Assembly: GCA_947629445.1 (NCBI GenBank)
Contig: CANRDU010000004.1
Location: 8,562-72,561, forward strand
Direction: 5' to 3'
DNA length: 64,000 nucleotides
DNA from: an uncultured Bacilli bacterium
GTDB lineage: Bacteria; Bacillota_I; Bacilli_A; RF39; UBA660
In this document: piece by piece, positions 3,644 to 50,921 of the stretch
How positions within the stretch are numbered: position 1 is the stretch's first letter
How the letters are laid out: every line of letters starts with the position of its first letter
The notes under the pieces: model-generated
What the model saw: only the letters and a program-made list of their open reading frames with translations
Database searches by the model: none
What the model was told of the DNA's origin: nothing
Program-made: the position numbers and the translations under genes

Positions 3644-3988
3644 ATGACAAATACAAATGATTTTTTAGGTAAAGAGGTAACCGTAAAGATAGATAGACCA
3701 TTAGGGTCAACACATCCAAAACATGGATTTATGTATATGTTAAATTATGGCTTTATACCGAATACAATTAGTGGTGATGGTGAAGAATTAGATGCTTATT
3801 TAGTTGGCGAATTTGAACCAGTAGAAGAAGAAAAAGGCAAAGTAATAGCGATCATTCATAGAACGAACGATGATGATGATAAGTTGATTGTTTCCAAAAA
3901 TGGAAAAGAATATTCTGATGATGCCATTAGGGCTATGACAGAATTTCAAGAACGATTTTTCGAGTCAATCATTATTAGAAAAAAATAA
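3644..3988 (+). CDS. Small inorganic-pyrophosphatase-like protein
   Basis: DRPLGS..HP...Y.NYGFIP.T...DGEELDAYL and a DDDDK acidic cluster resemble short family I PPase-like proteins. Strong RBS gagggagg. Confidence 0.5.
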   Translation: MTNTNDFLGKEVTVKIDRPLGSTHPKHGFMYMLNYGFIPNTISGDGEELDAYLVGEFEPVEEEKGKVIAIIHRTNDDDDKLIVSKNGKEYSDDAIRAMTEFQERFFESIIIRKK

Positions 3989-4772: not shown

Positions 4773-4803
4773 AAAAAAACTAATCCACTTGGATTAGCTT
4801 TTT
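4773..4803. terminator. Bidirectional terminator (ends the minus-strand sipW operon)
   Basis: ctaatcc / ggattag stem flanked by an A7 run on one side and a T5 run on the other. Confidence 0.6.
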
Positions 4804-4916: not shown

Positions 4917-5858
4917 TTATATTGTTTTTTTTAAATGATAAATATAATAAATATTGTCTATAATCGCATAATAGCTGTTTTGGTAATGAAATATATTGGA
5001 ATTATTATTTACGGCTATATTTATTAAATCTTTTAAACTAGTTAAATAGATAATATTATCCATATTAATATTAGGTTTCTTTTGAATAGTGATAATGATA
5101 TCTTGATAAGATTTTAAAATTGTCTTTTCATCATTTCTATAGAATAAAATTTTACTTATTAAATAAATAGTCGCTATAACTAAGATAATAAATACTATTA
5201 TTATTTTTAGATCAACATTTTGTTTATTATTTTCTAAAAAAGCATTCTCTTCTTTCATAGTGATTTCGATAATATTTTCGTTAAGAGGAATCACTAATTC
5301 CACATAAGGATTATCTTTATCATTAATTTGTACATTAAGTTTGATAGATAAATAACTTTCCGTTTTAATATTATAATATTCCTGGAAGGATTCAACATAA
5401 TTAACATAATATTGATAATCTAATTTGTAATTTTCAATTATATGAATTTCTCTTCCATCAATATTATTTATATTTTTTAAATTAAAATCTTTAGTCCAAA
5501 TTAATTTCGTGCCATTATCAGCATAACTTTTGATAGTAGCCGTCATATTATAAGAATAGTTAATATTTTCTTTCGTCTTGTCTTTTAAATAATAGTCAAA
5601 ATAAATATCAATATTTTTAATGGAATTTGCAATATAGTAATGATCAGATTCTAATGTATCTTTTAAAAAATAATTGTTAGGATTTAAAGTAACTTCATAA
5701 TATGTTTGGTTTTTGAATTGATATATATTGCTTTTTTGTATATTGTTATATGTATATATTACTCCTAAAAGAAGAATTCCTATAATAATACTAAAGAATA
5801 ATATCTTTATTTTTTTACTTTTTTCTTGCAATTTAATTCTCCTTCGCAAATAATTCAT
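4917..5858 (-). CDS. Two-TM membrane protein with a large extracytoplasmic domain (DUF5305-like by topology and context)
   Basis: N-terminal TM (ILFFSIIIGILLLGVIY), a ~190-aa external domain, a second TM (IIIVFIILVIATIYLISKILF) and a cytoplasmic tail. Its start overlaps the upstream sipW-like gene by 26 nt. The DUF5305 name is from memory of sipW neighbourhoods. Confidence 0.4.
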   Translation of the reverse strand: MNYLRRRIKLQEKSKKIKILFFSIIIGILLLGVIYTYNNIQKSNIYQFKNQTYYEVTLNPNNYFLKDTLESDHYYIANSIKNIDIYFDYYLKDKTKENINYSYNMTATIKSYADNGTKLIWTKDFNLKNINNIDGREIHIIENYKLDYQYYVNYVESFQEYYNIKTESYLSIKLNVQINDKDNPYVELVIPLNENIIEITMKEENAFLENNKQNVDLKIIIVFIILVIATIYLISKILFYRNDEKTILKSYQDIIITIQKKPNINMDNIIYLTSLKDLINIAVNNNSNIFHYQNSYYAIIDNIYYIYHLKKTI

Positions 5859-6924
5859 TTAACCAAATAGAAGGGTATCCTAAATATTTAAGAGAAAATT
5901 GATAAACACCTTTTATATCTTCTTTTTGAACTTTGATATAATCTACACTATTATTGGCATCTCCTTTGGTAACATAATAATCATTTATACTTACAACTCG
6001 GTGAACAATCATTTGATTTTGATATTGAAAGACAATAATATCCCCAGGAACGATATTTTCTTCTTTTTTATAAATGACAACATCGCCTCTTTTAAAAATG
6101 GGGTTCATACTATTGGACAAAATAGCGATAGGTTGATAAGTAAATAATCCAAGCATAAATAATACAAATAAAATAGATGCCATAATCGTGAAAGGAAGTA
6201 TTGTTCCTACATTCGTAAAATGATTTATCGTTCTTTTCCTAAAAATAAAGTATCTAAATAAATAGTAAATGATTAAAACTTTAATGATCCCAAAAGAACC
6301 TTCCATAAACCAATTACGATAGGGAATCATTGGTAAAATAATTTTCGGTATTTCCTGAAATACTTGAATAATTATAGAAACATTATAGTGTGAATTTAAA
6401 GATAAATAAGTAAATAGAATATTTTGAGCAATAATAGGGATAATTATGGAAATAAAATAATGAAAAAAAATGATATTCTGCGAAAAGAAAAGGGCTTTAA
6501 AATTAATTTCACTGAAAATAATGATAATGGTTACTAAAACTTTAAAACCAAAATAATTTTTGTTGCTTCTAAGCAGTTTATAGCGTATTATTTCAACACC
6601 ACATATCGGTAAGATAACTTTCCATATATTTATAAAAATATTAATGAATGAATAATTAGAAAAATTTTTCTGAAAGCCGAAAATAAAACCACTAATGAAA
6701 TAAAGTATAAAAAAGATAATGGATATAGTCAAAGTAGTATTCATTTCTTTTCTCTTGGAAAGTTTGAAATTTTGAGGATAAAAAATGATTAGAAAAATTA
6801 ACCAAAAAAGTGGCTTAAAAACATTCATATAAAAACGATTCGTATAAAAGAATATATGACTTATGGTATAGATGCTTAAAAGAAAAAATAAATGTTTATT
6901 TTTAAGCGTTTTCTTTTTGAACAT
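5833..6924 (-). CDS. sipW: SipW-type (archaeal/ER-type S26B) signal peptidase I fused to a ~235-aa N-terminal polytopic membrane domain
   Basis: The C-terminal ~125 aa carry SNSMNP (catalytic Ser box), IVHRV (His box) and KGDANN (Asp box). The N-terminal ~235 aa have about 7 hydrophobic helices and are absent from canonical ~190-aa SipW. Confidence 0.7.
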   Translation of the reverse strand: MFKKKTLKNKHLFFLLSIYTISHIFFYTNRFYMNVFKPLFWLIFLIIFYPQNFKLSKRKEMNTTLTISIIFFILYFISGFIFGFQKNFSNYSFINIFINIWKVILPICGVEIIRYKLLRSNKNYFGFKVLVTIIIIFSEINFKALFFSQNIIFFHYFISIIIPIIAQNILFTYLSLNSHYNVSIIIQVFQEIPKIILPMIPYRNWFMEGSFGIIKVLIIYYLFRYFIFRKRTINHFTNVGTILPFTIMASILFVLFMLGLFTYQPIAILSNSMNPIFKRGDVVIYKKEENIVPGDIIVFQYQNQMIVHRVVSINDYYVTKGDANNSVDYIKVQKEDIKGVYQFSLKYLGYPSIWLNELFAKEN

Positions 6925-7405
6925 ATTGAATTATCCCTGTTAATGTTTTGGTTTTCACATCAGGAATTTCCTTCGTATTTTTAACATAGGTTACTATGAT
7001 ATTAAAGGTAGTGGAATCCCCAACATTTAAGTCTTTTTTTAGTTCAGATGTTGTATAGTTAATTTCTTCAATTCCACCTATTTCTTCTGTGAATATTATC
7101 GTTTGTAATTCGGCATCAATAGTTCCTAAATTTTCTATGGTAACTTCATAAATGATTTCATCGCCAGGTTTATTCAGTTTAGCTGAAAAATTAATAGAAT
7201 CTTTAGTAAATGAAGGTGTTCCAGCATCGCAACCATCGGGCACTTGGGTAGCAGTTATATTTGTTATTCTGACGTCCCACTCACCAGTAATTTCGGCAGT
7301 TCCATCAATAGTAAAATCGGTTGCAAATGTCGAATAACCAACAGCCATTAAAATAATAGTTGCAAGAAAGAAGACAATGATAATGAATATTTTTTTGTTA
7401 TGCAA
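6902..7405 (-). CDS. Secreted TasA/camelysin-like beta-sandwich protein, probable SipW substrate
   Basis: TTG start 8 nt after aaggag. The signal peptide ends in GYSTFATDF (compare TasA GTWAAFND). INFSAKLNKPGDEIIYEVTIENLGT resembles TasA VNLSNLKPGDKLTKDFQFENNGS. First gene of the sipW operon. Confidence 0.55.
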   Translation of the reverse strand: MHNKKIFIIIVFFLATIILMAVGYSTFATDFTIDGTAEITGEWDVRITNITATQVPDGCDAGTPSFTKDSINFSAKLNKPGDEIIYEVTIENLGTIDAELQTIIFTEEIGGIEEINYTTSELKKDLNVGDSTTFNIIVTYVKNTKEIPDVKTKTLTGIIQYVQKENA

Positions 7406-7751
7406 ATTATATTCTCCTTTCTATTTAGCTTATCAAAGTTAAATTAGAAATAGCATTTGCTATTTCACTCATAATTTATGTTAAAACAGATAATTGGTAT
7501 TGTTGTTAATCCTAAGTGAATTTAAAAATTTTACTAATCTATAGAATTTCATATTTTCTTTTTTAAAGGATATAATTATTATTCCTAAAATGATGCCTAG
7601 ATAACAAAAAAATCCCATATATTTGAGATTTTTTACAAATAGAGTGAGTGATGAAAAATTTATATATACGATATATACGATCATTTGGATAATTATTAAA
7701 AAGGTAAGGGGAGAGATAAACTGGGTTTCACTGAAACTGATAACGTTGGTC

Positions 7752-7781
7752 AAAAAAACCTAGTTCCCGTTAAGAACTAGG
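7752..7781 (-). terminator. Rho-independent terminator of the 511-aa gene
   Basis: cctagttc / gaactagg stem; on the minus strand it is followed by T7. Confidence 0.7.
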
Positions 7782-7900
7782 TTATTTAATAAAAAATGGA
7801 GCAATTGTGTATCTCGTTTGAGAAACAATTACCTACAAATGTAATAAGAGATAAATCTTAATTACATACTCATTATATACTTAAACAAAAGATAATGCAA

Positions 7901-9436
7901 TTACTTCTCAGTATTATTTTTAATTAAATCTTTTATTTGATTTATGGATTTATTTATTTCTTTTATTTCATTATTATTAATTTCAATTTTAGTTTCTATA
8001 TTTTTTATTGAATTATCATTTTTATTTCTATATTCAAAAAATATACTTAATCCCAAAGCACCTATGGCAATAATAACTGATATAATTGAAATCCAAAATG
8101 AACTTTTAATATTATTAATATTGATTCTAAATTCATATTCTTTTTTTAAATCTAGCAATTGTTTATTATAATCATCATAAATATTTTTTATATTTTCAAA
8201 ACCTTTTATTATATATTCATCTTTATATTGAAATTTGTGAATATCAATACCATTAAATATGGAACTATATTTATGAAATTTTGAATTTAGTATTTCATAT
8301 TGCTTATAATTTTTTCTAATTTTATTAGTTTTGCAATTATACAACTTAATCTTTTCATTTGTAATATCTCCTTGCATCTCATCTAAAAGATAAAAGGCAA
8401 TAGAATTAATAAAAATATTTGTAAACTCATTACCAGTATGTTTTATTATATTTTCTTTTTCTTTAAGATAAAAAAGAACACTATTTGAACGATCTATTTT
8501 ATTTCGAGATATCATAATGTTGTACCACATAGTAGTATCAATGAACGAATCGCTTTCTCCACTTTTTCCAACACATACACTTATATTTTCAAGTTCTCTA
8601 GCTAAATAATGTTCTAATATTTCTAAATCTTGATAGAAAGATTCTGCTCTATTTGTTACTTTAAAGTTAGTTTGATATGTATTAATACTTATTGGTGGTT
8701 TATTTTTATAATCTAATTGAAGAGGTAGATATTTATTAAATAGTTTGTTGAATCTACATTTAAATTCTATAATAAAGTCTTCATAATCATTATTGCGTTT
8801 TTTCTTAACGGAAGTTCTGCTTCTACTATAAAGATACTTCTTTTTATATTTTAATTTATCATAAATAGTAGCTATATTTACTTTTTCATTAAATATATTG
8901 TTTATTTCGTTATTAAATTTTTCTGTAACTTTTAAATCAAAAGATATTCCTAAAAGGTCATTTGATATTTCAAAAATATGAATAATTATTAAATCACATA
9001 ATTCATATAGTTCATTATCCTTTGGTGATAATCTACATAATTCAGTACAACCATGATAGTTAGTTGAAGTTATATAACTATCTATACATTTTTTTAATTC
9101 TTTATGTCTAAGTTCTCCACCTAAATAGCCTTTTAAATAATTGTCTTTATATAGATTAATAATTCCTGGATATAAATTATGGCAATCATTTTTAGAAACA
9201 ATATTCAGTAAAAATATATCATTTAATCTTAAATATTTGTTTTTAGGCATGGTAGTATTTTTTTCATCATATGCTTTTTCAAAATTATCCTCCGTATATA
9301 GAAATTTTTCCATATCGGTTAATGGTATTATTTTTGATGTCTTATTTCTTATACTTTTTTTAATATTCATTACCTTATTTAAAAAAAGATTATCTTTATC
9401 TATTCTTTGCTTACTAAATTTATTTTTTATTTTCAT
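7901..9436 (-). CDS. Hypothetical 511-aa protein with one C-terminal TM helix and a coiled-coil tail
   Basis: Long ORF in extremely AT-rich DNA. TM SSFWISIISVIIAIGALGLSIFF lies near aa 445-467, followed by a 44-aa N/I/K-rich heptad-like tail. No catalytic motif recognised. Confidence 0.6.
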   Translation of the reverse strand: MKIKNKFSKQRIDKDNLFLNKVMNIKKSIRNKTSKIIPLTDMEKFLYTEDNFEKAYDEKNTTMPKNKYLRLNDIFLLNIVSKNDCHNLYPGIINLYKDNYLKGYLGGELRHKELKKCIDSYITSTNYHGCTELCRLSPKDNELYELCDLIIIHIFEISNDLLGISFDLKVTEKFNNEINNIFNEKVNIATIYDKLKYKKKYLYSRSRTSVKKKRNNDYEDFIIEFKCRFNKLFNKYLPLQLDYKNKPPISINTYQTNFKVTNRAESFYQDLEILEHYLARELENISVCVGKSGESDSFIDTTMWYNIMISRNKIDRSNSVLFYLKEKENIIKHTGNEFTNIFINSIAFYLLDEMQGDITNEKIKLYNCKTNKIRKNYKQYEILNSKFHKYSSIFNGIDIHKFQYKDEYIIKGFENIKNIYDDYNKQLLDLKKEYEFRININNIKSSFWISIISVIIAIGALGLSIFFEYRNKNDNSIKNIETKIEINNNEIKEINKSINQIKDLIKNNTEK

Positions 9437-9455
9437 TTCAAACCTCCCAATAATA

Positions 9456-9832
9456 TTATAAGTCTATATTCCACAAGCCAAGCTGTCCTTTAACTTCTTT
9501 ATCATTATTTATTTTTTTAGAATTAGTTAATTTCCAAGCATAACCAGTTCTATATTTAGAACCATATGCTATATTTTTTTCTGCAATTATTTTTTTGTTT
9601 AACTCATCATTTAATTCTAAACAATCTTCTATTTCTACTTCAGCTAGTATTTTTTTGATGGAAATTCTAAATTCAAATCCCTAAATTTTTCTAATTCTTT
9701 TTTATCAATTCCAGTTCCAGCATGAATTAGTATTTTGCCTCTATAATTGGTTTTCCAAGATCTAAATTCATATTTTTTTATACCTTCTGCAACAAGTGTA
9801 GCCCATGGTTGCTTTAAAGTTAATACTTTCAT
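9456..9832 (-). pseudogene. ASCH-domain gene interrupted by a frameshift at an A7 run
   Basis: The N-terminal 62 aa (MKVLTLKQPWATLVAEGIKKYEFRSW...ILIHAG) are a typical ASCH start and stop at 9644. The next frame continues IKKILAEVEIEDC...GYAWKLTNSKKI...VKGQLGLWNIDL to a stop at 9456-9458. One extra A in the run at about 9650-9656 would restore a ~125-aa ORF. Confidence 0.7.
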
Positions 9833-9895
9833 TGAACCACCTCAAAAACATTTTATCACAAATTCTTATAAAGGTTATTATATTACCTTGAATTA

Positions 9896-9904
9896 TGATA
9901 TAAT
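9896..9904 (+). promoter_or_regulatory. Extended -10 promoter element (TGaTATAAT) for the R-M operon
   Basis: tgatataat lies 26 nt upstream of the methyltransferase ATG. The -35 is weak. Confidence 0.4.
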
Positions 9905-9929
9905 TTATATGAGAGGATGGTGTCATATC

Positions 9930-10892
9930 ATGGAATTAAAAAAAATGAAATTTATCGATTTATTTGCTGGTATAGGTGGATTTAGATATGCACTAGAGTC
10001 TTTTGGATGTAAATGTGTTTTTTCATCTGAATGGGATAAATATTGTCAAGAAAGTTATAATTTAAATTTTGGAGAAATTCCATATGGAGATATAACAAAA
10101 ATAGATGAAAAAGATATTCCAAGTTTTGATATACTTTGTGCTGGTTTTCCATGTCAACCATTTAGTATTTCTGGAAAGCAAAAAGGATTTGAAGATACAA
10201 GAGGAACATTATTCTTTGATATAGTACGAATTGTTAGTTATCATAAACCTAAAATCATTTTTCTAGAAAATGTTAAAAATTTAAAAGCTCATAATGGTGG
10301 AGCAACTTTTGAAGTTATTTCAAAGACACTTGATAGTTTAAATTATAATATTTATCATAAAGTTCTAAATGCTAAAGATTTTAATTTACCACAAAACAGA
10401 GAAAGAATTACTATTATTTGTATAAGAAAGGATATTGATAATGGCAAATTCAAATTTCCAAGCCCATATAAAACATTTGCTACTATTAGTGATATAAAAG
10501 AGGATGATTCAATTACAAATAAATATATCCTTAATAGAAAAGATATCCATATAGACGAAAAAAAATTAAATGAAGCAATAAAAAATGGTAAAGTTCAAAA
10601 GCCTCTACAAATTGGGGTTATAGGGCAAGGTGGTCAAGGAAATAGAATTTACCACGAAAATGGCATAGGAATAACCCTAGCAGCTTCAAGTGGCGGTGCT
10701 GCTTCAAAAACAGGGGCTTACTATATTAATGGTAAGGTAAGAAAATTAAGTCCTAGAGAAGCCGCAAGATTACAAGGATTTCCTGAAAAGTTTAAGATAA
10801 TAGAAAATGACAATCAATCATTAAAGCAATTTGGTAATAGTGTACCAATTAACTTATTAAAAGAAGTTTTTAAAGGATTAAAAGATGTTTAG
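9930..10892 (+). CDS. DNA (cytosine-5)-methyltransferase, M.HhaI-like
   Basis: Motifs FAGIGG (I), GFPCQPFS (IV), ENV (VI), QNRER (VIII), GNSV (X). The region QIGVIGQGGQGNRIYHENGIGITLAASSGGAASKTGAYYINGKVRKL closely parallels my recollection of the M.HhaI TRD. RBS gagagga precedes the ATG at 9930; the ORF-track start at 9747 is an artefactual extension. Confidence 0.9.
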   Translation: MELKKMKFIDLFAGIGGFRYALESFGCKCVFSSEWDKYCQESYNLNFGEIPYGDITKIDEKDIPSFDILCAGFPCQPFSISGKQKGFEDTRGTLFFDIVRIVSYHKPKIIFLENVKNLKAHNGGATFEVISKTLDSLNYNIYHKVLNAKDFNLPQNRERITIICIRKDIDNGKFKFPSPYKTFATISDIKEDDSITNKYILNRKDIHIDEKKLNEAIKNGKVQKPLQIGVIGQGGQGNRIYHENGIGITLAASSGGAASKTGAYYINGKVRKLSPREAARLQGFPEKFKIIENDNQSLKQFGNSVPINLLKEVFKGLKDV

Positions 10893-10902
10893 GAGGATTA
10901 GA

Positions 10903-11739
10903 ATGAAAAAATGGGAAGATTTTGAAAATGAAATGACTGGATATTTACAACAAATGTTAAAAGATTATGATGTTTTAGTAAAGCAATATGGAAATGCTGA
11001 TAGTACAGTTCCAGACATAGAAATAACAATTAATTCAAATAATAAAAAGTTTTATGTAGAAATTAAAATGCCTGCATCTCAAACTTCTCAATTTGTTGTT
11101 GAAATAAAAAATGGTAAATTCGTTTATGGTAATAAAAATAAATTTAAAGAAAATCAATATTCTAATGAAATCATAGATATACTAAATGATAATTATAATT
11201 TATATAGTAAAGTTGCACAAACAGGTATGATTGTTCCTGTTCCTGAAACAATAGCATTTAGTTGGATTGCCTCAAATATGAAAAATAAAAATGTTGAATT
11301 TATAATTTCAGTAGATAATGATGGAAATAAAAAGATTTTCTCACTAGATCAATTTAATAAATTCTTTAACATTAAAACAATTTTTAGAAGAAAGAAAAGT
11401 GGAAGTCAAGATTTGCCTAAAACATATTATGATGATTTTAAAAAACATTTAGATTTAAAATTTTCAAAATATAAATATTCATTAAGTACCAATGGGAAAA
11501 AATTATATTTAGATTTACCTTTAGATTTAACTAAAAGTGAATGTTATATTGATAGTAATGTACTGCCAGAGGGAAAACGATACTTTCTATCAAATAAAAG
11601 AAATGGAAAGTATGAAGTAAAAATAACCTCAGCAACAAATAATCCAAATATTATCTTTGAATTGTCTTTAAAGGATGATGCTGATTTTGATATGTTTACT
11701 ATTCAATGTTTGATTGAATACATAAATAATAATATGTAA
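10903..11739 (+). CDS. Type II restriction endonuclease (PD-(D/E)XK) cognate to the m5C methyltransferase
   Basis: Begins 11 nt after the MTase stop, behind RBS aggagg. Has a PD-x14-EIK motif (VPDIEITINSNNKKFYVEIKM). 278 aa. Confidence 0.6.
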   Translation: MKKWEDFENEMTGYLQQMLKDYDVLVKQYGNADSTVPDIEITINSNNKKFYVEIKMPASQTSQFVVEIKNGKFVYGNKNKFKENQYSNEIIDILNDNYNLYSKVAQTGMIVPVPETIAFSWIASNMKNKNVEFIISVDNDGNKKIFSLDQFNKFFNIKTIFRRKKSGSQDLPKTYYDDFKKHLDLKFSKYKYSLSTNGKKLYLDLPLDLTKSECYIDSNVLPEGKRYFLSNKRNGKYEVKITSATNNPNIIFELSLKDDADFDMFTIQCLIEYINNNM

Positions 11740-11768
11740 AAAAGTGACTATAATTCGTAGTCGCTTTT
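11738..11768. terminator. Bidirectional terminator between the convergent REase and relaxase genes
   Basis: agtgacta / tagtcgct stem (one G-T pair) flanked by an A-run and a T-run. It overlaps the relaxase stop codon. Confidence 0.55.
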
Positions 11769-13160
11769 ATTTGTCATATAAAATTCTTCAGCTGCTTCGT
11801 TCATTTCTCTATTAATAGATTTAAGTGCTTTATTTATTTCTGATTTATTAATTGTTCTAGGTGGATTAAATATAACTCTATGTTCTTTATCAGTTATTAA
11901 GTTTTTATTATTCATATCATTAGCAATTTCTCTAAAAAATCTAGAAGTAGTTGGATTTTTGCTATTAGCATTTTTACATAGATAAGTTATAAAATCTTTT
12001 CTTTCATCCATTCTTTTATTCATAACTGCATGAACGAAATCTCTATCTTCTCTTAATTCAGTATTTTCCATTTTAAGCTTCTGATTTTCTTTAATGAGTT
12101 TATTATTATCATTTTCAACTTTATTATTTCTATCTTTTTGATATTTTAAATTATCATTAATTGAAGATATATTATTAATTATATTTTTATAATTATCAAA
12201 ATCATCAATTATAGATTCAACATCTTTAATTAAAGTTTGTAATCTTTCTTTTTGCTTATTATTAAGCTTATAACCACCAAGTCTAGATTCTTCTAAACCA
12301 GATAATAAATCTTGCAACTCTTTTGAAGAGTTGTTTATCGATTTTATCTTATCATTATTTTTATCAATACTTCTTTTATTAATTTCTAGTTCTTTTTTTA
12401 ATTCTTGATAATTAACCATATCTTTAACATAAATATCTTTATTTCTTCCTTTTTCTTTAGTCTTCAGAGTAGCATTTTCTTTTTCAAAGTATTTATTAAA
12501 AGTATTAATACATTTTTCTCTCATTATATTTTGTATATGCTCAAGTCTTTCTTTAGTAAATACTGATGATTTATTTACTTGCTTGTATAAACCCGTTTTA
12601 CAACCATCCTTGACGGGAACACCAACTATATGCATATGTGGGGAAGTTTCGTCTAAGTGTACAACAGCATTTGTTATTTTAAACTCTGGAACAACTTTTT
12701 CTAAATCGTGCAAATGTTCCTCATAAACACTAACCATTTCTCTTTTAAACTCAAAATCTTTTGAATCCCAATATTCTTTATTCCCAAGTTCAATTATAAT
12801 CTCACAAGCAAGATCCCTTTTTTCATCTTTATTAACATATTCAAAATAATCATTAATTCTTCTACTAGGTCTAGATTGTTTATTATTATATTCAAGTCTT
12901 GCTTTTTCAAATTCAGTTTTATAAAATTCTTTAACATCATAAACAATATCATTAGTCCCTTTTAATTGATAAATATAATCATTATCATTTTCATATTTTC
13001 TAAAATCATGATTATTAACTTTTGACAATTGATGATAATTTTGTATTCCATTATTTGCAAGAGAAGAAGAACCACTTACATTATTTCTGGCATTTCCTCT
13101 TGCTGATGCTTTTCTATTTTTATTACTTCCCAGATGAAATGAATAAGTTAATTCAGTCAT
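11748..13160 (-). CDS. mob: MobV-family (Pre/Mob) relaxase
   Basis: HLDETSPHMHIVGVP matches the HxDE...PHxH metal-binding motif of MOBV relaxases. The C-terminal half is long and coiled-coil, as in Pre/MobM. Confidence 0.8.
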   Translation of the reverse strand: MTELTYSFHLGSNKNRKASARGNARNNVSGSSSLANNGIQNYHQLSKVNNHDFRKYENDNDYIYQLKGTNDIVYDVKEFYKTEFEKARLEYNNKQSRPSRRINDYFEYVNKDEKRDLACEIIIELGNKEYWDSKDFEFKREMVSVYEEHLHDLEKVVPEFKITNAVVHLDETSPHMHIVGVPVKDGCKTGLYKQVNKSSVFTKERLEHIQNIMREKCINTFNKYFEKENATLKTKEKGRNKDIYVKDMVNYQELKKELEINKRSIDKNNDKIKSINNSSKELQDLLSGLEESRLGGYKLNNKQKERLQTLIKDVESIIDDFDNYKNIINNISSINDNLKYQKDRNNKVENDNNKLIKENQKLKMENTELREDRDFVHAVMNKRMDERKDFITYLCKNANSKNPTTSRFFREIANDMNNKNLITDKEHRVIFNPPRTINKSEINKALKSINREMNEAAEEFYMTNKSDYEL

Positions 13161-13276
13161 ATAATTCCTCCTTTTTAGTGTGGGCTGATATATCCCATAT
13201 CATGGTTATCCAAGATATATAACCCCCTAGATATCTTGTACAGCCTTCAGCCATACAAGATTTCGTGGACTAAGGA
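13161..13276 (-). other. Candidate oriT / mob promoter region
   Basis: 116-bp gap between the relaxase start and the recombinase stop. It contains the inverted repeat caagatat(12 nt)atatcttg, the palindrome gatatatc, and TAGTGTG, reminiscent of the pMV158-type nick region (from memory). Confidence 0.35.
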
Positions 13277-15112
<1,836 letters not shown>

Positions 15113-15130
15113 TTAAACCTCCTTATTACT

Positions 15131-15182
15131 AAAAAAGAGGAGACAATAGTATCTAGTAAGGTCTAAATACTACTGACTCCTC
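15131..15182 (-). terminator. Strong terminator-like hairpin immediately upstream of the recombinase gene
   Basis: On the minus strand: gaggagtcagtagtat(14 nt)atactattgtctcctc, 16 bp with one mismatch, followed by T6. It ends 19 nt before the recombinase ATG region. Confidence 0.5.
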
Positions 15183-15323
15183 ATTAAGTTCAATATTATA
15201 AAATTTTATATGTTTGTATTTATAATTCATAGATGTACCTCCATTTCTAGAGTTACCTCTTTCATTGGTTATTTATAATATCACTTTTTAAATATTTGTC
15301 AATTCCTTATTGAGGGAATACTA

Positions 15324-15605
15324 TTAAGAGCATTTAGCTAGTTTAAAGTATTTTTCAAGTTCAGATAAATTATGTTTATCATTTAGAGTATTAACATAGA
15401 AAGTATCAATTCCATTAAAGAACAAGAATGTATAATTATTAATAATTACTTTATGTGGATCTACATAAGCAAGATTAGATGGTTCTAATCTAATTAAATG
15501 ACCTTTTTCTAATCTTATAGATGTAGAAGTATAATTCTTAGCCCAATCAATCTTTTTCTTTAAATCAGGGCTTAAATCAAGTTTTTCTTTAATAATATTT
15601 AACAT
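15324..15605 (-). CDS. Hypothetical small protein (93 aa from the ATG at 15605)
   Basis: The ORF is open to 15629, but that GTG abuts the tRNA terminator T-run. The internal ATG (MLNIIKEKL) is more plausible. Confidence 0.4.
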   Translation of the reverse strand: MLNIIKEKLDLSPDLKKKIDWAKNYTSTSIRLEKGHLIRLEPSNLAYVDPHKVIINNYTFLFFNGIDTFYVNTLNDKHNLSELEKYFKLAKCS

Positions 15606-15629
15606 ATCATCACAACCTTTCTTAGACAC

Positions 15630-15656
15630 AAAAAAACTTAATTATTTCTAATTAAG
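15630..15656 (-). terminator. Terminator of tRNA-Gly
   Basis: cttaatta / taattaag stem followed by T7 on the minus strand, 40 nt downstream of the tRNA 3' end. Confidence 0.6.
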
Positions 15657-15695
15657 CTTTATCTCAACATCGGTTGTTCCGACGATTTTTACAAA

Positions 15696-15769
15696 TGGAG
15701 CGGGTGATGGGAATCGGACCCACGTTATCAGCTTGGAAGGCTGGAGTTCTACCATTGAACTACACCCGC
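15696..15769 (-). tRNA. tRNA-Gly (anticodon UCC), CCA encoded
   Basis: The reverse complement GCGGGTGTAGTTCAATGGTAGAACTCCAGCCTTCCAAGCTGATAACGTGGGTCCGATTCCCATCACCCGCTCCA folds as a cloverleaf with anticodon loop CTTCCAA. It is very similar to Bacillus tRNA-Gly(UCC). Confidence 0.9.
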
Positions 15770-50695: not shown

Positions 50696-50921
50696 GTTTT
50701 TAGAAAGAGCGATAATAGGAAAGTAGTAATAAAGTAATGGAAAAAAGAGAGTTCATGGTTGGTGTGAATGAACAAGAAGTCTTTATGAATTCGTTCCTTA
50801 GCATTGTAAAAGAAAATTTATGACGGTGACGCGTTATAGTCTTGAGATTATTATGTAAATAATGATAAATTAAGGTGGTACCACGAGCAATTCGTCCTTA
50901 GCTGTGGTATCTCTTTTTTTT
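50696..50921 (+). promoter_or_regulatory. T-box riboswitch leader (Phe; UUC codons at 50790-50796)
   Basis: AGAGAG...GGTTGGTGTGA stem I distal motifs. T-box aaattaaggtggtaccacgag. Terminator taccacgagc / gctgtggta followed by T8. Confidence 0.85.

Follow-up and report, generated by a model that had tools for sequence, protein, structure and literature searches.

Three co-directional open reading frames (ORFs) located on the minus strand (7405-4917) of a 64,000-nucleotide stretch of DNA from an uncultured Bacilli bacterium of the rabbit gut (contig CANRDU010000004.1; hereafter the window) encode a small secreted subunit, a signal peptidase I (SPase I) and a DUF5305 protein, respectively. All three ORFs are present as an earlier sequence-only reading of the window had described them. 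The operon is best explained, with a probability of about 60%, as a minimal bacterial AbpX-type (TasA-superfamily) module for a donor-strand extracellular fibre or matrix, the polymerisation being proposed by analogy. The idea of a SipW-dependent surface fibre put forward in the sequence-only reading is right in outline, as the operon is a self-contained module of a fibre type linked to such genes in the literature; its components point to AbpX and a polytopic peptidase, not to TasA and SipW. It had also been proposed as a distinct, previously unseen system, but the architecture of AbpX, SPase I with ten transmembrane (TM) helices and DUF5305 protein has already been described in Bacillota, and the operon is a new minimal, gut-associated case of it (bioRxiv 10.64898/2026.01.04.697558). 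The features of the operon are given below (aa, amino acids; nt, nucleotides).

6902..7405, minus strand: subunit gene; 167-aa precursor, putative fibre subunit (AbpX-like, TasA superfamily); TTG start with AGGAG 8 nt upstream.
7331..7405, minus strand: signal peptide, residues 1-25 (MHNKK, a 17-residue hydrophobic core and G-Y-S); predicted cleavage between S25 and T26.
7286..7330, minus strand: TFATDFTIDGTAEIT, the predicted donor strand at the N-terminus of the mature protein; hydrophobic residues alternate in it (F2, F6, I8, (G10), A12 and I14).
5833..6924, minus strand: peptidase gene; 363-aa SPase I, a fusion protein.
6154..6924, minus strand: polytopic membrane domain at the N-terminus of the peptidase (residues 1-257), with nine helices in the AlphaFold2 (AF2) model.
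5836..6153, minus strand: S26B catalytic domain of the peptidase, residues 258-363; endoplasmic reticulum (ER)/archaeal-type, with a short C-terminal helix at its end.
4917..5831, minus strand: DUF5305 gene; 304 aa from TTG 5831, with an alternative ATG start at 5858 (313 aa).
4780-4797, with a T-run at 4773-4779, minus strand: intrinsic terminator-like hairpin separating the operon from a convergent 181-aa gene.
7406..7520, minus strand: conserved leader/promoter region upstream of the subunit gene, from an alignment of the 200 nt upstream in 49 loci.

In the proposed mechanism, the 167-aa precursor would be exported by Sec, and the polytopic S26B peptidase, probably with the DUF5305 protein as an accessory, would cleave it after G-Y-S25 to yield an acidic protein of 142 aa (isoelectric point (pI) 4.2). 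The new N-terminus, T-F-A-T-D-F-T-I-D-G-T-A-E-I, would be an exposed amphipathic strand that enters the incomplete beta-sandwich of its neighbouring subunit by donor-strand complementation, with head-to-tail assembly of the subunits. The expected products are thin, chaperone-free, acidic extracellular fibrils for gut adhesion or matrix formation. The steps of Sec export and peptidase cleavage appear well grounded on sequence and context, and the steps of strand exposure and head-to-tail assembly are suggested by analogy. Gene content, synteny, intact catalytic residues, DUF5305 membership, the cleavage-type motif and a moderate likeness to AbpX at the profile level are shown directly, whereas we infer the exact cleavage site, the pairing of the peptidase with the subunit, the polymerisation and the biological role.

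The trio is conserved well beyond the window. One genome per species was scanned, which gave 289 peptidase relatives; the best 80 loci were kept. These 80 are all from metagenome-assembled genomes of rabbit, human (Hadza) or rumen samples, and carry the labels Bacilli, Clostridia, Erysipelotrichaceae and Tenericutes. The order subunit-peptidase-DUF5305 is found in essentially all of these loci at peptidase identities of 35-80%, while the genes that flank the operon in the window accompany the trio in none of the approximately 80 other loci. Because the order is conserved while the flanking genes are unrelated, the trio behaves as a functional unit, and the association of the three genes is far beyond chance. 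The homologues collected numbered 84 (close ones) for the subunit, 301 for the peptidase and 142 for the DUF5305 protein. The window itself contains a single copy of the subunit. In more distant loci, a second subunit paralogue, a 190-460-aa protein between the subunit and peptidase genes, or both are present; the 190-460-aa protein is encoded in L060, L062, L065, L066, L068, L071, L074, L082, L085 and L086. These extra proteins share the N-terminal signature G-Y-[AS]-L-L-x-x-x-L-x-I-x-G with the subunit and are unrelated to it in the remainder, which makes them candidates for tip or minor subunits that would have the cognate signal and the donor strand in common with the subunit, in the manner of TapA and TasA.

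The N-terminus of the subunit is of the standard Sec type, and the sequence after its hydrophobic core reads G-Y-S-T-F-A-T-D-F-T-I-D-G-T-A-E-I-T-G-E-W. The predicted cleavage site has small residues at -3 and -1, in agreement with the -3/-1 rule, and Phe at +2. Across 204 family sequences the corresponding motif is M-x-V-G-Y-[A/S]↓[A/T]-F-[A/S]-[T/Q/S]-x-L-x-I-N-G-T-A-x-I-x-[G/S]-x-W-D-V-x-I-T, in which the arrow marks the predicted cleavage. Position 2 of the mature protein (F27 of the window precursor, counting from cleavage after G-Y-S25) holds F in 80% of these sequences and L in 19%, and the predicted donor strand is conserved at G10 (97%), I8 (87%) and I14 (85%). Asp is present at mature position 5 in 27% of the family, including the window protein. 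The predicted mature protein of 142 aa has a pI of 4.20 and 16.9% Asp+Glu; the standalone relatives (n=134) have a median pI of 4.29 and 15.5% Asp+Glu. A class III (type IV pilin) signal was considered for the subunit and rejected, as the n- and h-regions are normal and the conserved motif lies after the hydrophobic core, not before it.

AbpX of Pyrodictium abyssi is a TasA-superfamily protein with a mature length of 163 aa and a pI of about 4, which polymerises by donor-strand complementation with bound calcium (PDB 9SJ2/9RHP) and has homologues in Bacillota and Chloroflexota; the AbpX family has a pI of about 4.0 and about 15% acidic residues (bioRxiv 10.64898/2026.01.04.697558). Bacterial abpX loci have been reported from Clostridium amylolyticum, Natronincola, Ammonifex and others; the AbpX-associated SPase I of bacteria and archaea has ten TM helices, not two, and most AbpX loci encode a DUF5305 protein that is read as an accessory subunit of the SPase (bioRxiv 10.64898/2026.01.04.697558). 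The sequence of AbpX was taken from the preprint supplement and confirmed against PDB 9SJ2, and that of TasA was confirmed against 8AUR, the chain of which starts at A28 (AFND...). In a profile comparison with hhalign, the 61-member subunit profile matched the AbpX precursor with a probability of 94.7% (E 6e-8); the 141 aligned columns extend from the signal peptide into and across the sandwich and pair V-G-Y-S↓T-F of the subunit family with L-T-Y-A↓Q-W of AbpX. The match to mature AbpX alone was 73.9% with a score of 35.8, whereas 30 shuffled AbpX sequences scored at most 16.7. Against TasA, the profile reached 60.5% over 58 columns around the PGD...N-x-G motif. AbpX relatives for an AbpX-side profile were sought in metagenome contigs and none were found, so hhalign was run with one AbpX sequence. 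By profile comparison, the nearest relative of the subunit is archaeal AbpX and not TasA (94.7% vs 60.5%). The motif G-Y-[AS]↓x-F of the subunit family parallels Y-A↓Q-W of AbpX and W-A↓A-F of TasA, whose mature N-terminus was verified against 8aur, and the hydrophobic residues 6, 8, 12 and 14 of the predicted donor strand, together with F2, parallel W2/L6/L8/A10/I12 of AbpX. Gene context, composition and motif all support membership of the AbpX clade, and sequence does so moderately.

The AF2 model of the subunit (predicted local distance difference test (pLDDT) 80.6) contains a signal helix (2-27), a disordered segment (28-43; pLDDT 51-60) and a seven-strand sandwich (45-163). A sandwich with a disordered leading strand is compatible with a donor-strand jelly-roll subunit, and AbpX monomers are likewise reported to have a disordered N-terminal segment before the sandwich (bioRxiv 10.64898/2026.01.04.697558).

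Several results weigh against the assignment of the subunit to an AbpX-type fibre. An acidic residue at mature position 4 is stressed for the Ca2+-dependent assembly of AbpX (bioRxiv 10.64898/2026.01.04.697558), and this position is occupied by T in the window protein and by T (65%), Q (17%) or S (15%) in its family. When the narrow subunit profile was searched against the whole PDB, AbpX was the second match with an E value of 0.38 (not significant); the match was gone with a broader profile, and the single sequence gave no matches in the PDB. Foldseek with the subunit monomer model against the PDB returned nothing at E<=1e-3, and its top 50 consisted of generic immunoglobulin (Ig)-like ear/appendage domains with no TasA or AbpX among them. 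The strongest Pfam likeness of the family is to generic surface Ig-like domains, and sub-threshold matches to DUF7507, DUF11, CARDB and Peptidase_M73 were found in 53, 46, 38 and 20 of the 61 relatives, respectively, those to Peptidase_M73 being below threshold every time. The window subunit itself is below the curated cut-offs of DUF7507 (21.9 vs 27 bits), DUF11 (14.8 vs 24.6) and Peptidase_M73 (PF12389; 14.4 vs 22.5). In addition, no anchor, tip or minor subunit was found in this locus or in the rest of the window.

The likeness to TasA/camelysin claimed in the sequence-only reading is thus partly borne out. The quoted residues (GYSTFATDF, residues 23-31; LNKPGD...ENLGT, residues 77-95), the cleavage motif and the PGD core are there, but the TasA and Peptidase_M73 thresholds are missed, AbpX is closer, and the AF2 model has a seven-strand sandwich for which Foldseek yet returns no TasA in the top 50. 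Weak NCBIfam matches among the 61 relatives were to BsaA (TIGR04090; six relatives), TasA (NF046066; four, best E 8.5e-4) and cognate_SipW (one). The model of the SipW-cognate signal peptide (TIGR04088) did not match the window subunit and matched one of the 61 relatives at E 0.025; the cleavage motif resembles Y/W-A↓A-F and yet falls outside this model.

The same results bear on the main alternative, in which the subunit is a processed, non-polymerising secreted or surface Ig-like protein of the CARDB/DUF11 type, e.g., an adhesin or a coat, and the peptidase and DUF5305 protein merely process it. This is possible but rather unlikely. Its best arguments are the Pfam/NCBIfam likeness to DUF7507, DUF11, CARDB and choice-of-anchor D, the generic beta-sandwiches that are all Foldseek yields, and the presence of the same N-terminal module at the head of numerous proteins of 200-1000 aa whose C-terminal domains are diverse and which may simply be surface proteins. 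Against it, the amphipathic strand after the predicted cleavage belongs to the most highly conserved portions of the family and can be aligned with the donor strand of AbpX, AF2 leaves this strand unpacked, and the pair of polytopic SPase and DUF5305 protein has so far been reported only beside donor-strand filament genes.

Cluster representatives matching the subunit profile in an exhaustive search numbered 7,420 with a cut-off of E<=1e-3 and 203 with one of E<=1e-30. The matches comprise standalone proteins (about 165 aa) and longer ones (200-1000 aa) with the module as the N-terminal domain. Several of the long relatives (P0340, P0343, P0373, P0418 and others) consist of the module, repeats and a recurring C-terminal domain 'GDGLY.D.YEEGRY.YKG.NPNNYI.FN...WRI', and others end in leucine-rich-repeat-like tails. 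This arrangement suggests that the N-terminal module acts as a stalk for diverse surface domains.

The second gene encodes a peptidase that passes the NCBIfam model of archaeal-type signal peptidase I (TIGR02228; 80.9 bits, cut-off 51.85) and fails the equivalog model of Bacillus SipW (NF046067; 51.5 bits, cut-off 190). Of the proposed S26B SipW-type peptidase, therefore, the S26B assignment stands and SipW does not; the enzyme is a polytopic fusion. Its 363 aa are about twice the size of SipW (approximately 190 aa), owing to a polytopic membrane domain of some 257 aa that lies N-terminal to the catalytic part. This domain, which doubles the size of the peptidase, was overlooked in the sequence-only reading. 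In the AF2 model (pLDDT 81.6) the helices are at 10-26, 30-48, 58-81, 93-120, 125-139, 150-177, 180-196, 205-227 and 238-257, and the beta-rich catalytic part (263-346) is followed by a short C-terminal helix. With the Lys-rich N-terminus inside the cell and nine spans, the catalytic domain is therefore placed outside. The catalytic residues are S272 (SNSM), H308 (VHR) and D322/D328 (KGDANNSVD). In an alignment of 35 peptidase homologues, S270, S272, M273, H308 and D328 are invariant and D322 is conserved in at least 90%; by sequence, this Ser/His/Asp set is that of the S26B enzymes instead of Ser/Lys. In the membrane domain, G79, E111, R114, P201 and W205 are invariant in the same homologues. 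In a near-identical metagenomic copy (L002/P0085), Ala replaces Glu111, which is invariant elsewhere (GVAIIRY vs GVEIIRY); natural variation or an error in the assembly may account for this. Distant homologues (P0176, P0178, P0188, P0191-P0194, P0200-P0204) contain a conserved C-terminal tail '(E/Q)(A/P)KVE(T/I)K' that is absent from the window peptidase.

Foldseek matched the catalytic part of the peptidase alone; the best match was human SEC11C (7p2q_A; E 5e-5, 30% identity), and the membrane domain had no match among PDB folds. Searched alone against Pfam for four homologues at E<=10, the membrane domain also gave no family. CPBP/Rce1-like and exosortase-like motifs were judged by eye in this domain and rejected, since the spacing does not fit and no model supports them. 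The second-best fold match of the catalytic domain is SipA (4n31), a pilus-assembly factor of Streptococcus pyogenes and an inactive homologue of such peptidases. On an alternative model with SipA as the precedent, the hydrophobic segment of the subunit would remain uncleaved as a membrane anchor and the peptidase-like protein would mainly be a chaperone or assembly factor, to which the large extra membrane domain, suggestive of a role beyond cleavage, would also be suited. Such a role is improbable in view of the conserved catalytic residues: Ser272, His308 and the Asp residues are (near-)invariant in the 35 diverse homologues. Moreover, the protein scores above the cut-off of the signal peptidase I equivalog model, and the motif G-Y-[AS]↓x-F obeys the -3/-1 rule and mirrors the proven cleavage sites of TasA and AbpX.

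The third gene encodes a protein that passes the Pfam model of DUF5305 (PF17231) at 33 bits against a gathering threshold of 29 and covers profile positions 1-217 of 217, as had been anticipated when this family was named for checking. Its predicted topology also agrees with the earlier description of an N-terminal TM segment, a large external domain and a second TM segment: TM 8-26 is followed by a 183-residue external region (27-209), TM 210-228 and a 76-residue cytoplasmic tail (229-304). DUF5305 proteins have been proposed as SPase I accessories in haloarchaeal Tat-fimbriae (Tafi) loci and in AbpX loci, and are sometimes fused to SPase I (PMC11821415, PMC12337348, bioRxiv 10.64898/2026.01.04.697558). 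By analogy, the window protein is a putative accessory subunit of the signal peptidase.

The overlap of the coding regions and the shared terminator were also claimed in the sequence-only reading. The subunit and peptidase genes do overlap by 23 nt. The overlap of the peptidase and DUF5305 genes is probably not real because the gene calls of identical metagenome contigs start the third gene at TTG 5831, which is preceded by AAGGAG and lies 1 nt past the peptidase stop. The terminator was recovered as the hairpin at 4780-4797 with its T-run at 4773-4779. A second terminator at 7783-7757 is located between the operon and an upstream 511-aa gene, and the region contains three terminator-like sites against 0.5 expected.

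About 110 nt before the subunit gene are strongly conserved over dozens of species-level loci (L009-L059). This leader contains a -10-like sequence, CATAAATTAT, at 7480-7471, which reads CATA(A/C)ATTAT across loci, a hairpin, GAAATAGCA-AA-TGCTATTTC, at 7466-7447, and the ribosome-binding site AGGAG at 7418-7414. The hairpin has about 8-9 bp (8 bp by RNAalifold), with G-U/A-U alternation at two pairs and a single compensatory change, and its form over the loci is G(G/A)(G/A)ATAGCA-TAA-TGCTATTTC. One subgroup of loci is devoid of the 3' half of the hairpin and keeps the shorter palindrome TAGCAT-AA-ATGCTA instead. A search of the leader against Rfam for a riboswitch such as that for cyclic di-GMP gave zero family matches. 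The conserved leader could be an RNA leader or an operator. RNA sequencing runs containing the window sequence were sought as a measure of expression, and rabbit/gut DNA metagenomes were the sole matches.

Upstream of the operon lies an integrated mobilisable element, with the following features.

7629-15709: mobilisable element of about 8 kb, integrated at the tRNA-Gly(tcc) 3' end and bounded by a 25-nt repeat.
In the element: 511-aa protein gene; C-terminal TM, no family.
In the element: ASCH fragment.
9747-10892, in the element: C5-cytosine methylase, overlapping a 284-aa ORF.
In the element: 284-aa ORF; no family, possibly the cognate nuclease of the C5-cytosine methylase.
13160-11748, in the element: Mob_Pre relaxase.
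15112-13277, in the element: large serine recombinase.

The tRNA-Gly(tcc) gene is at 15696-15769 on the minus strand. A 25-nt sequence over its 3' end (15685-15709) recurs as an imperfect direct repeat (22 of 25 matches) at 7629-7653, between the terminator of the 511-aa gene and the operon. A repeat of 25 nt is unusual for a serine integrase. The window sequence 7395-7665 aligns with the spacer between tRNA-Gly and the subunit gene in the related locus L042. The operon has a GC content of 20-28% against 29-36% in the flanking genes. As for the accessory DNA of the earlier description, the operon adjoins the mobile element and is not inside it. The operon could in principle be cargo of this element with a function tied to transfer, exclusion or defence, and both its low GC content and its position next to the relaxase, the recombinase and the methylase would fit. 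This is very improbable. The repeat copy at 7629-7653 sets the boundary of the element upstream of the operon, tRNA-Gly(tcc) in L042 lies 230 nt upstream of the subunit gene without an intervening element, and no gene of the element accompanies the trio in the approximately 80 other loci. The operon is beside the element and not part of it because of the location of the repeat copy and the tRNA arrangement in L042.

Two further observations were made in the window. A 114-aa ORF at 3644-3988 on the plus strand matches the central part of inorganic pyrophosphatase (PF00719, positions 31-115 of 153) and is truncated or a minimal pyrophosphatase-like protein; it is 92% identical to an ORF of L052 that is likewise near the fibre operon there. 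A T-box leader is present at 50703-50902 on the plus strand (Rfam RF00230; 103 bits against a gathering threshold of 93).

If the AbpX-type reading is true, three-gene sets for building extracellular fibres with no chaperone are common in uncultured Bacilli and Clostridia of the gut, the fibres being of a type so far solved for a hyperthermophilic archaeon alone, and TasA-superfamily matrix biology extends to the animal gut. The operon would also be a compact, portable system (one subunit, peptidase and helper) for studying the recognition of a cognate signal by a dedicated signal peptidase, and for probing the roles of the extra membrane domain and DUF5305. Current knowledge is not overturned, since the architecture was predicted for bacteria (bioRxiv 10.64898/2026.01.04.697558). 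No known family matches the nine-helix domain of the peptidase, and the role of DUF5305 is a proposed one. A broader and doubtful proposal is that the G-Y-[AS]↓x-F module could mark a very large unannotated class of donor-strand surface fibres and fibre-borne adhesins in gut Firmicutes, and that the nine-helix domain (with its invariant E111/R114) and DUF5305 would form a membrane assembly platform that couples cleavage to polymerisation and holds the fibre at the membrane. Because of such a platform, if it exists, a three-gene locus with neither anchor nor chaperone would suffice, possibly even in wall-reduced Bacilli.

The operon can be compared with several known systems. In the haloarchaeal Tat-fimbriae, the peptidase TafD is genetically required for processing of the pilin TafA, and TafG is a DUF5305 protein proposed as the partner of TafD (PMC11821415, PMC12337348). 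Tafi loci resemble the operon in having a dedicated peptidase and a DUF5305 membrane protein beside genes for donor-strand pilins (TafA/TafE), but they differ in the Tat signals, in the four TM helices and extra Ig-like C-terminal domain of TafD, and in their seven genes, which include tip, anchor and regulator genes (PMC11821415, PMC12337348). BsaA of C. perfringens is a SipW-dependent TasA-like matrix protein from an anaerobe of the Bacillota; its polymers are reported to have intermolecular isopeptide bonds and type IV pilus-associated secretion (PMC11580942), and nothing in the window operon indicates either. The six subunit relatives that match the BsaA model do so weakly, all below threshold (best E 6.8e-4).

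The tapA-sipW-tasA operon of B. subtilis shares with the window operon a dedicated ER/archaeal-type (Ser-His) peptidase encoded with its substrate and Phe at P2' (mature position 2). The core motif 'L-x-PGD...N-x-G' is common to TasA, which forms a donor-strand fibre, and the window subunit. In contrast, the window subunit is about 100 aa shorter than TasA and fails the Peptidase_M73 and TasA models, the window peptidase fails the SipW equivalog model and carries the 257-aa polytopic domain, a DUF5305 protein takes the place of TapA, and the gene order differs.

The AbpX loci differ from the window operon in several respects. The likeness of the two subunits is seen by profile-profile comparison alone, AF2 gives the window peptidase nine TM helices and a short C-terminal helix whereas the AbpX SPase has ten, and position 4 is T/Q/S in the window family but a Ca2+-binding acidic residue in AbpX. 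The window host is a mesophilic gut bacterium, and its fibres are putative. The published bacterial abpX loci also differ from the window locus, which is devoid of genes for anchors (S-layer homology (SLH) or LPXTG), tips, minor subunits and regulators. The AbpX loci and the window operon nevertheless have in common a small acidic mature subunit of about 140-165 aa with a Sec signal, the motif Y-[AS]↓x-aromatic and an amphipathic N-terminal strand, together with a dedicated SPase I of about ten membrane helices and a DUF5305 protein.

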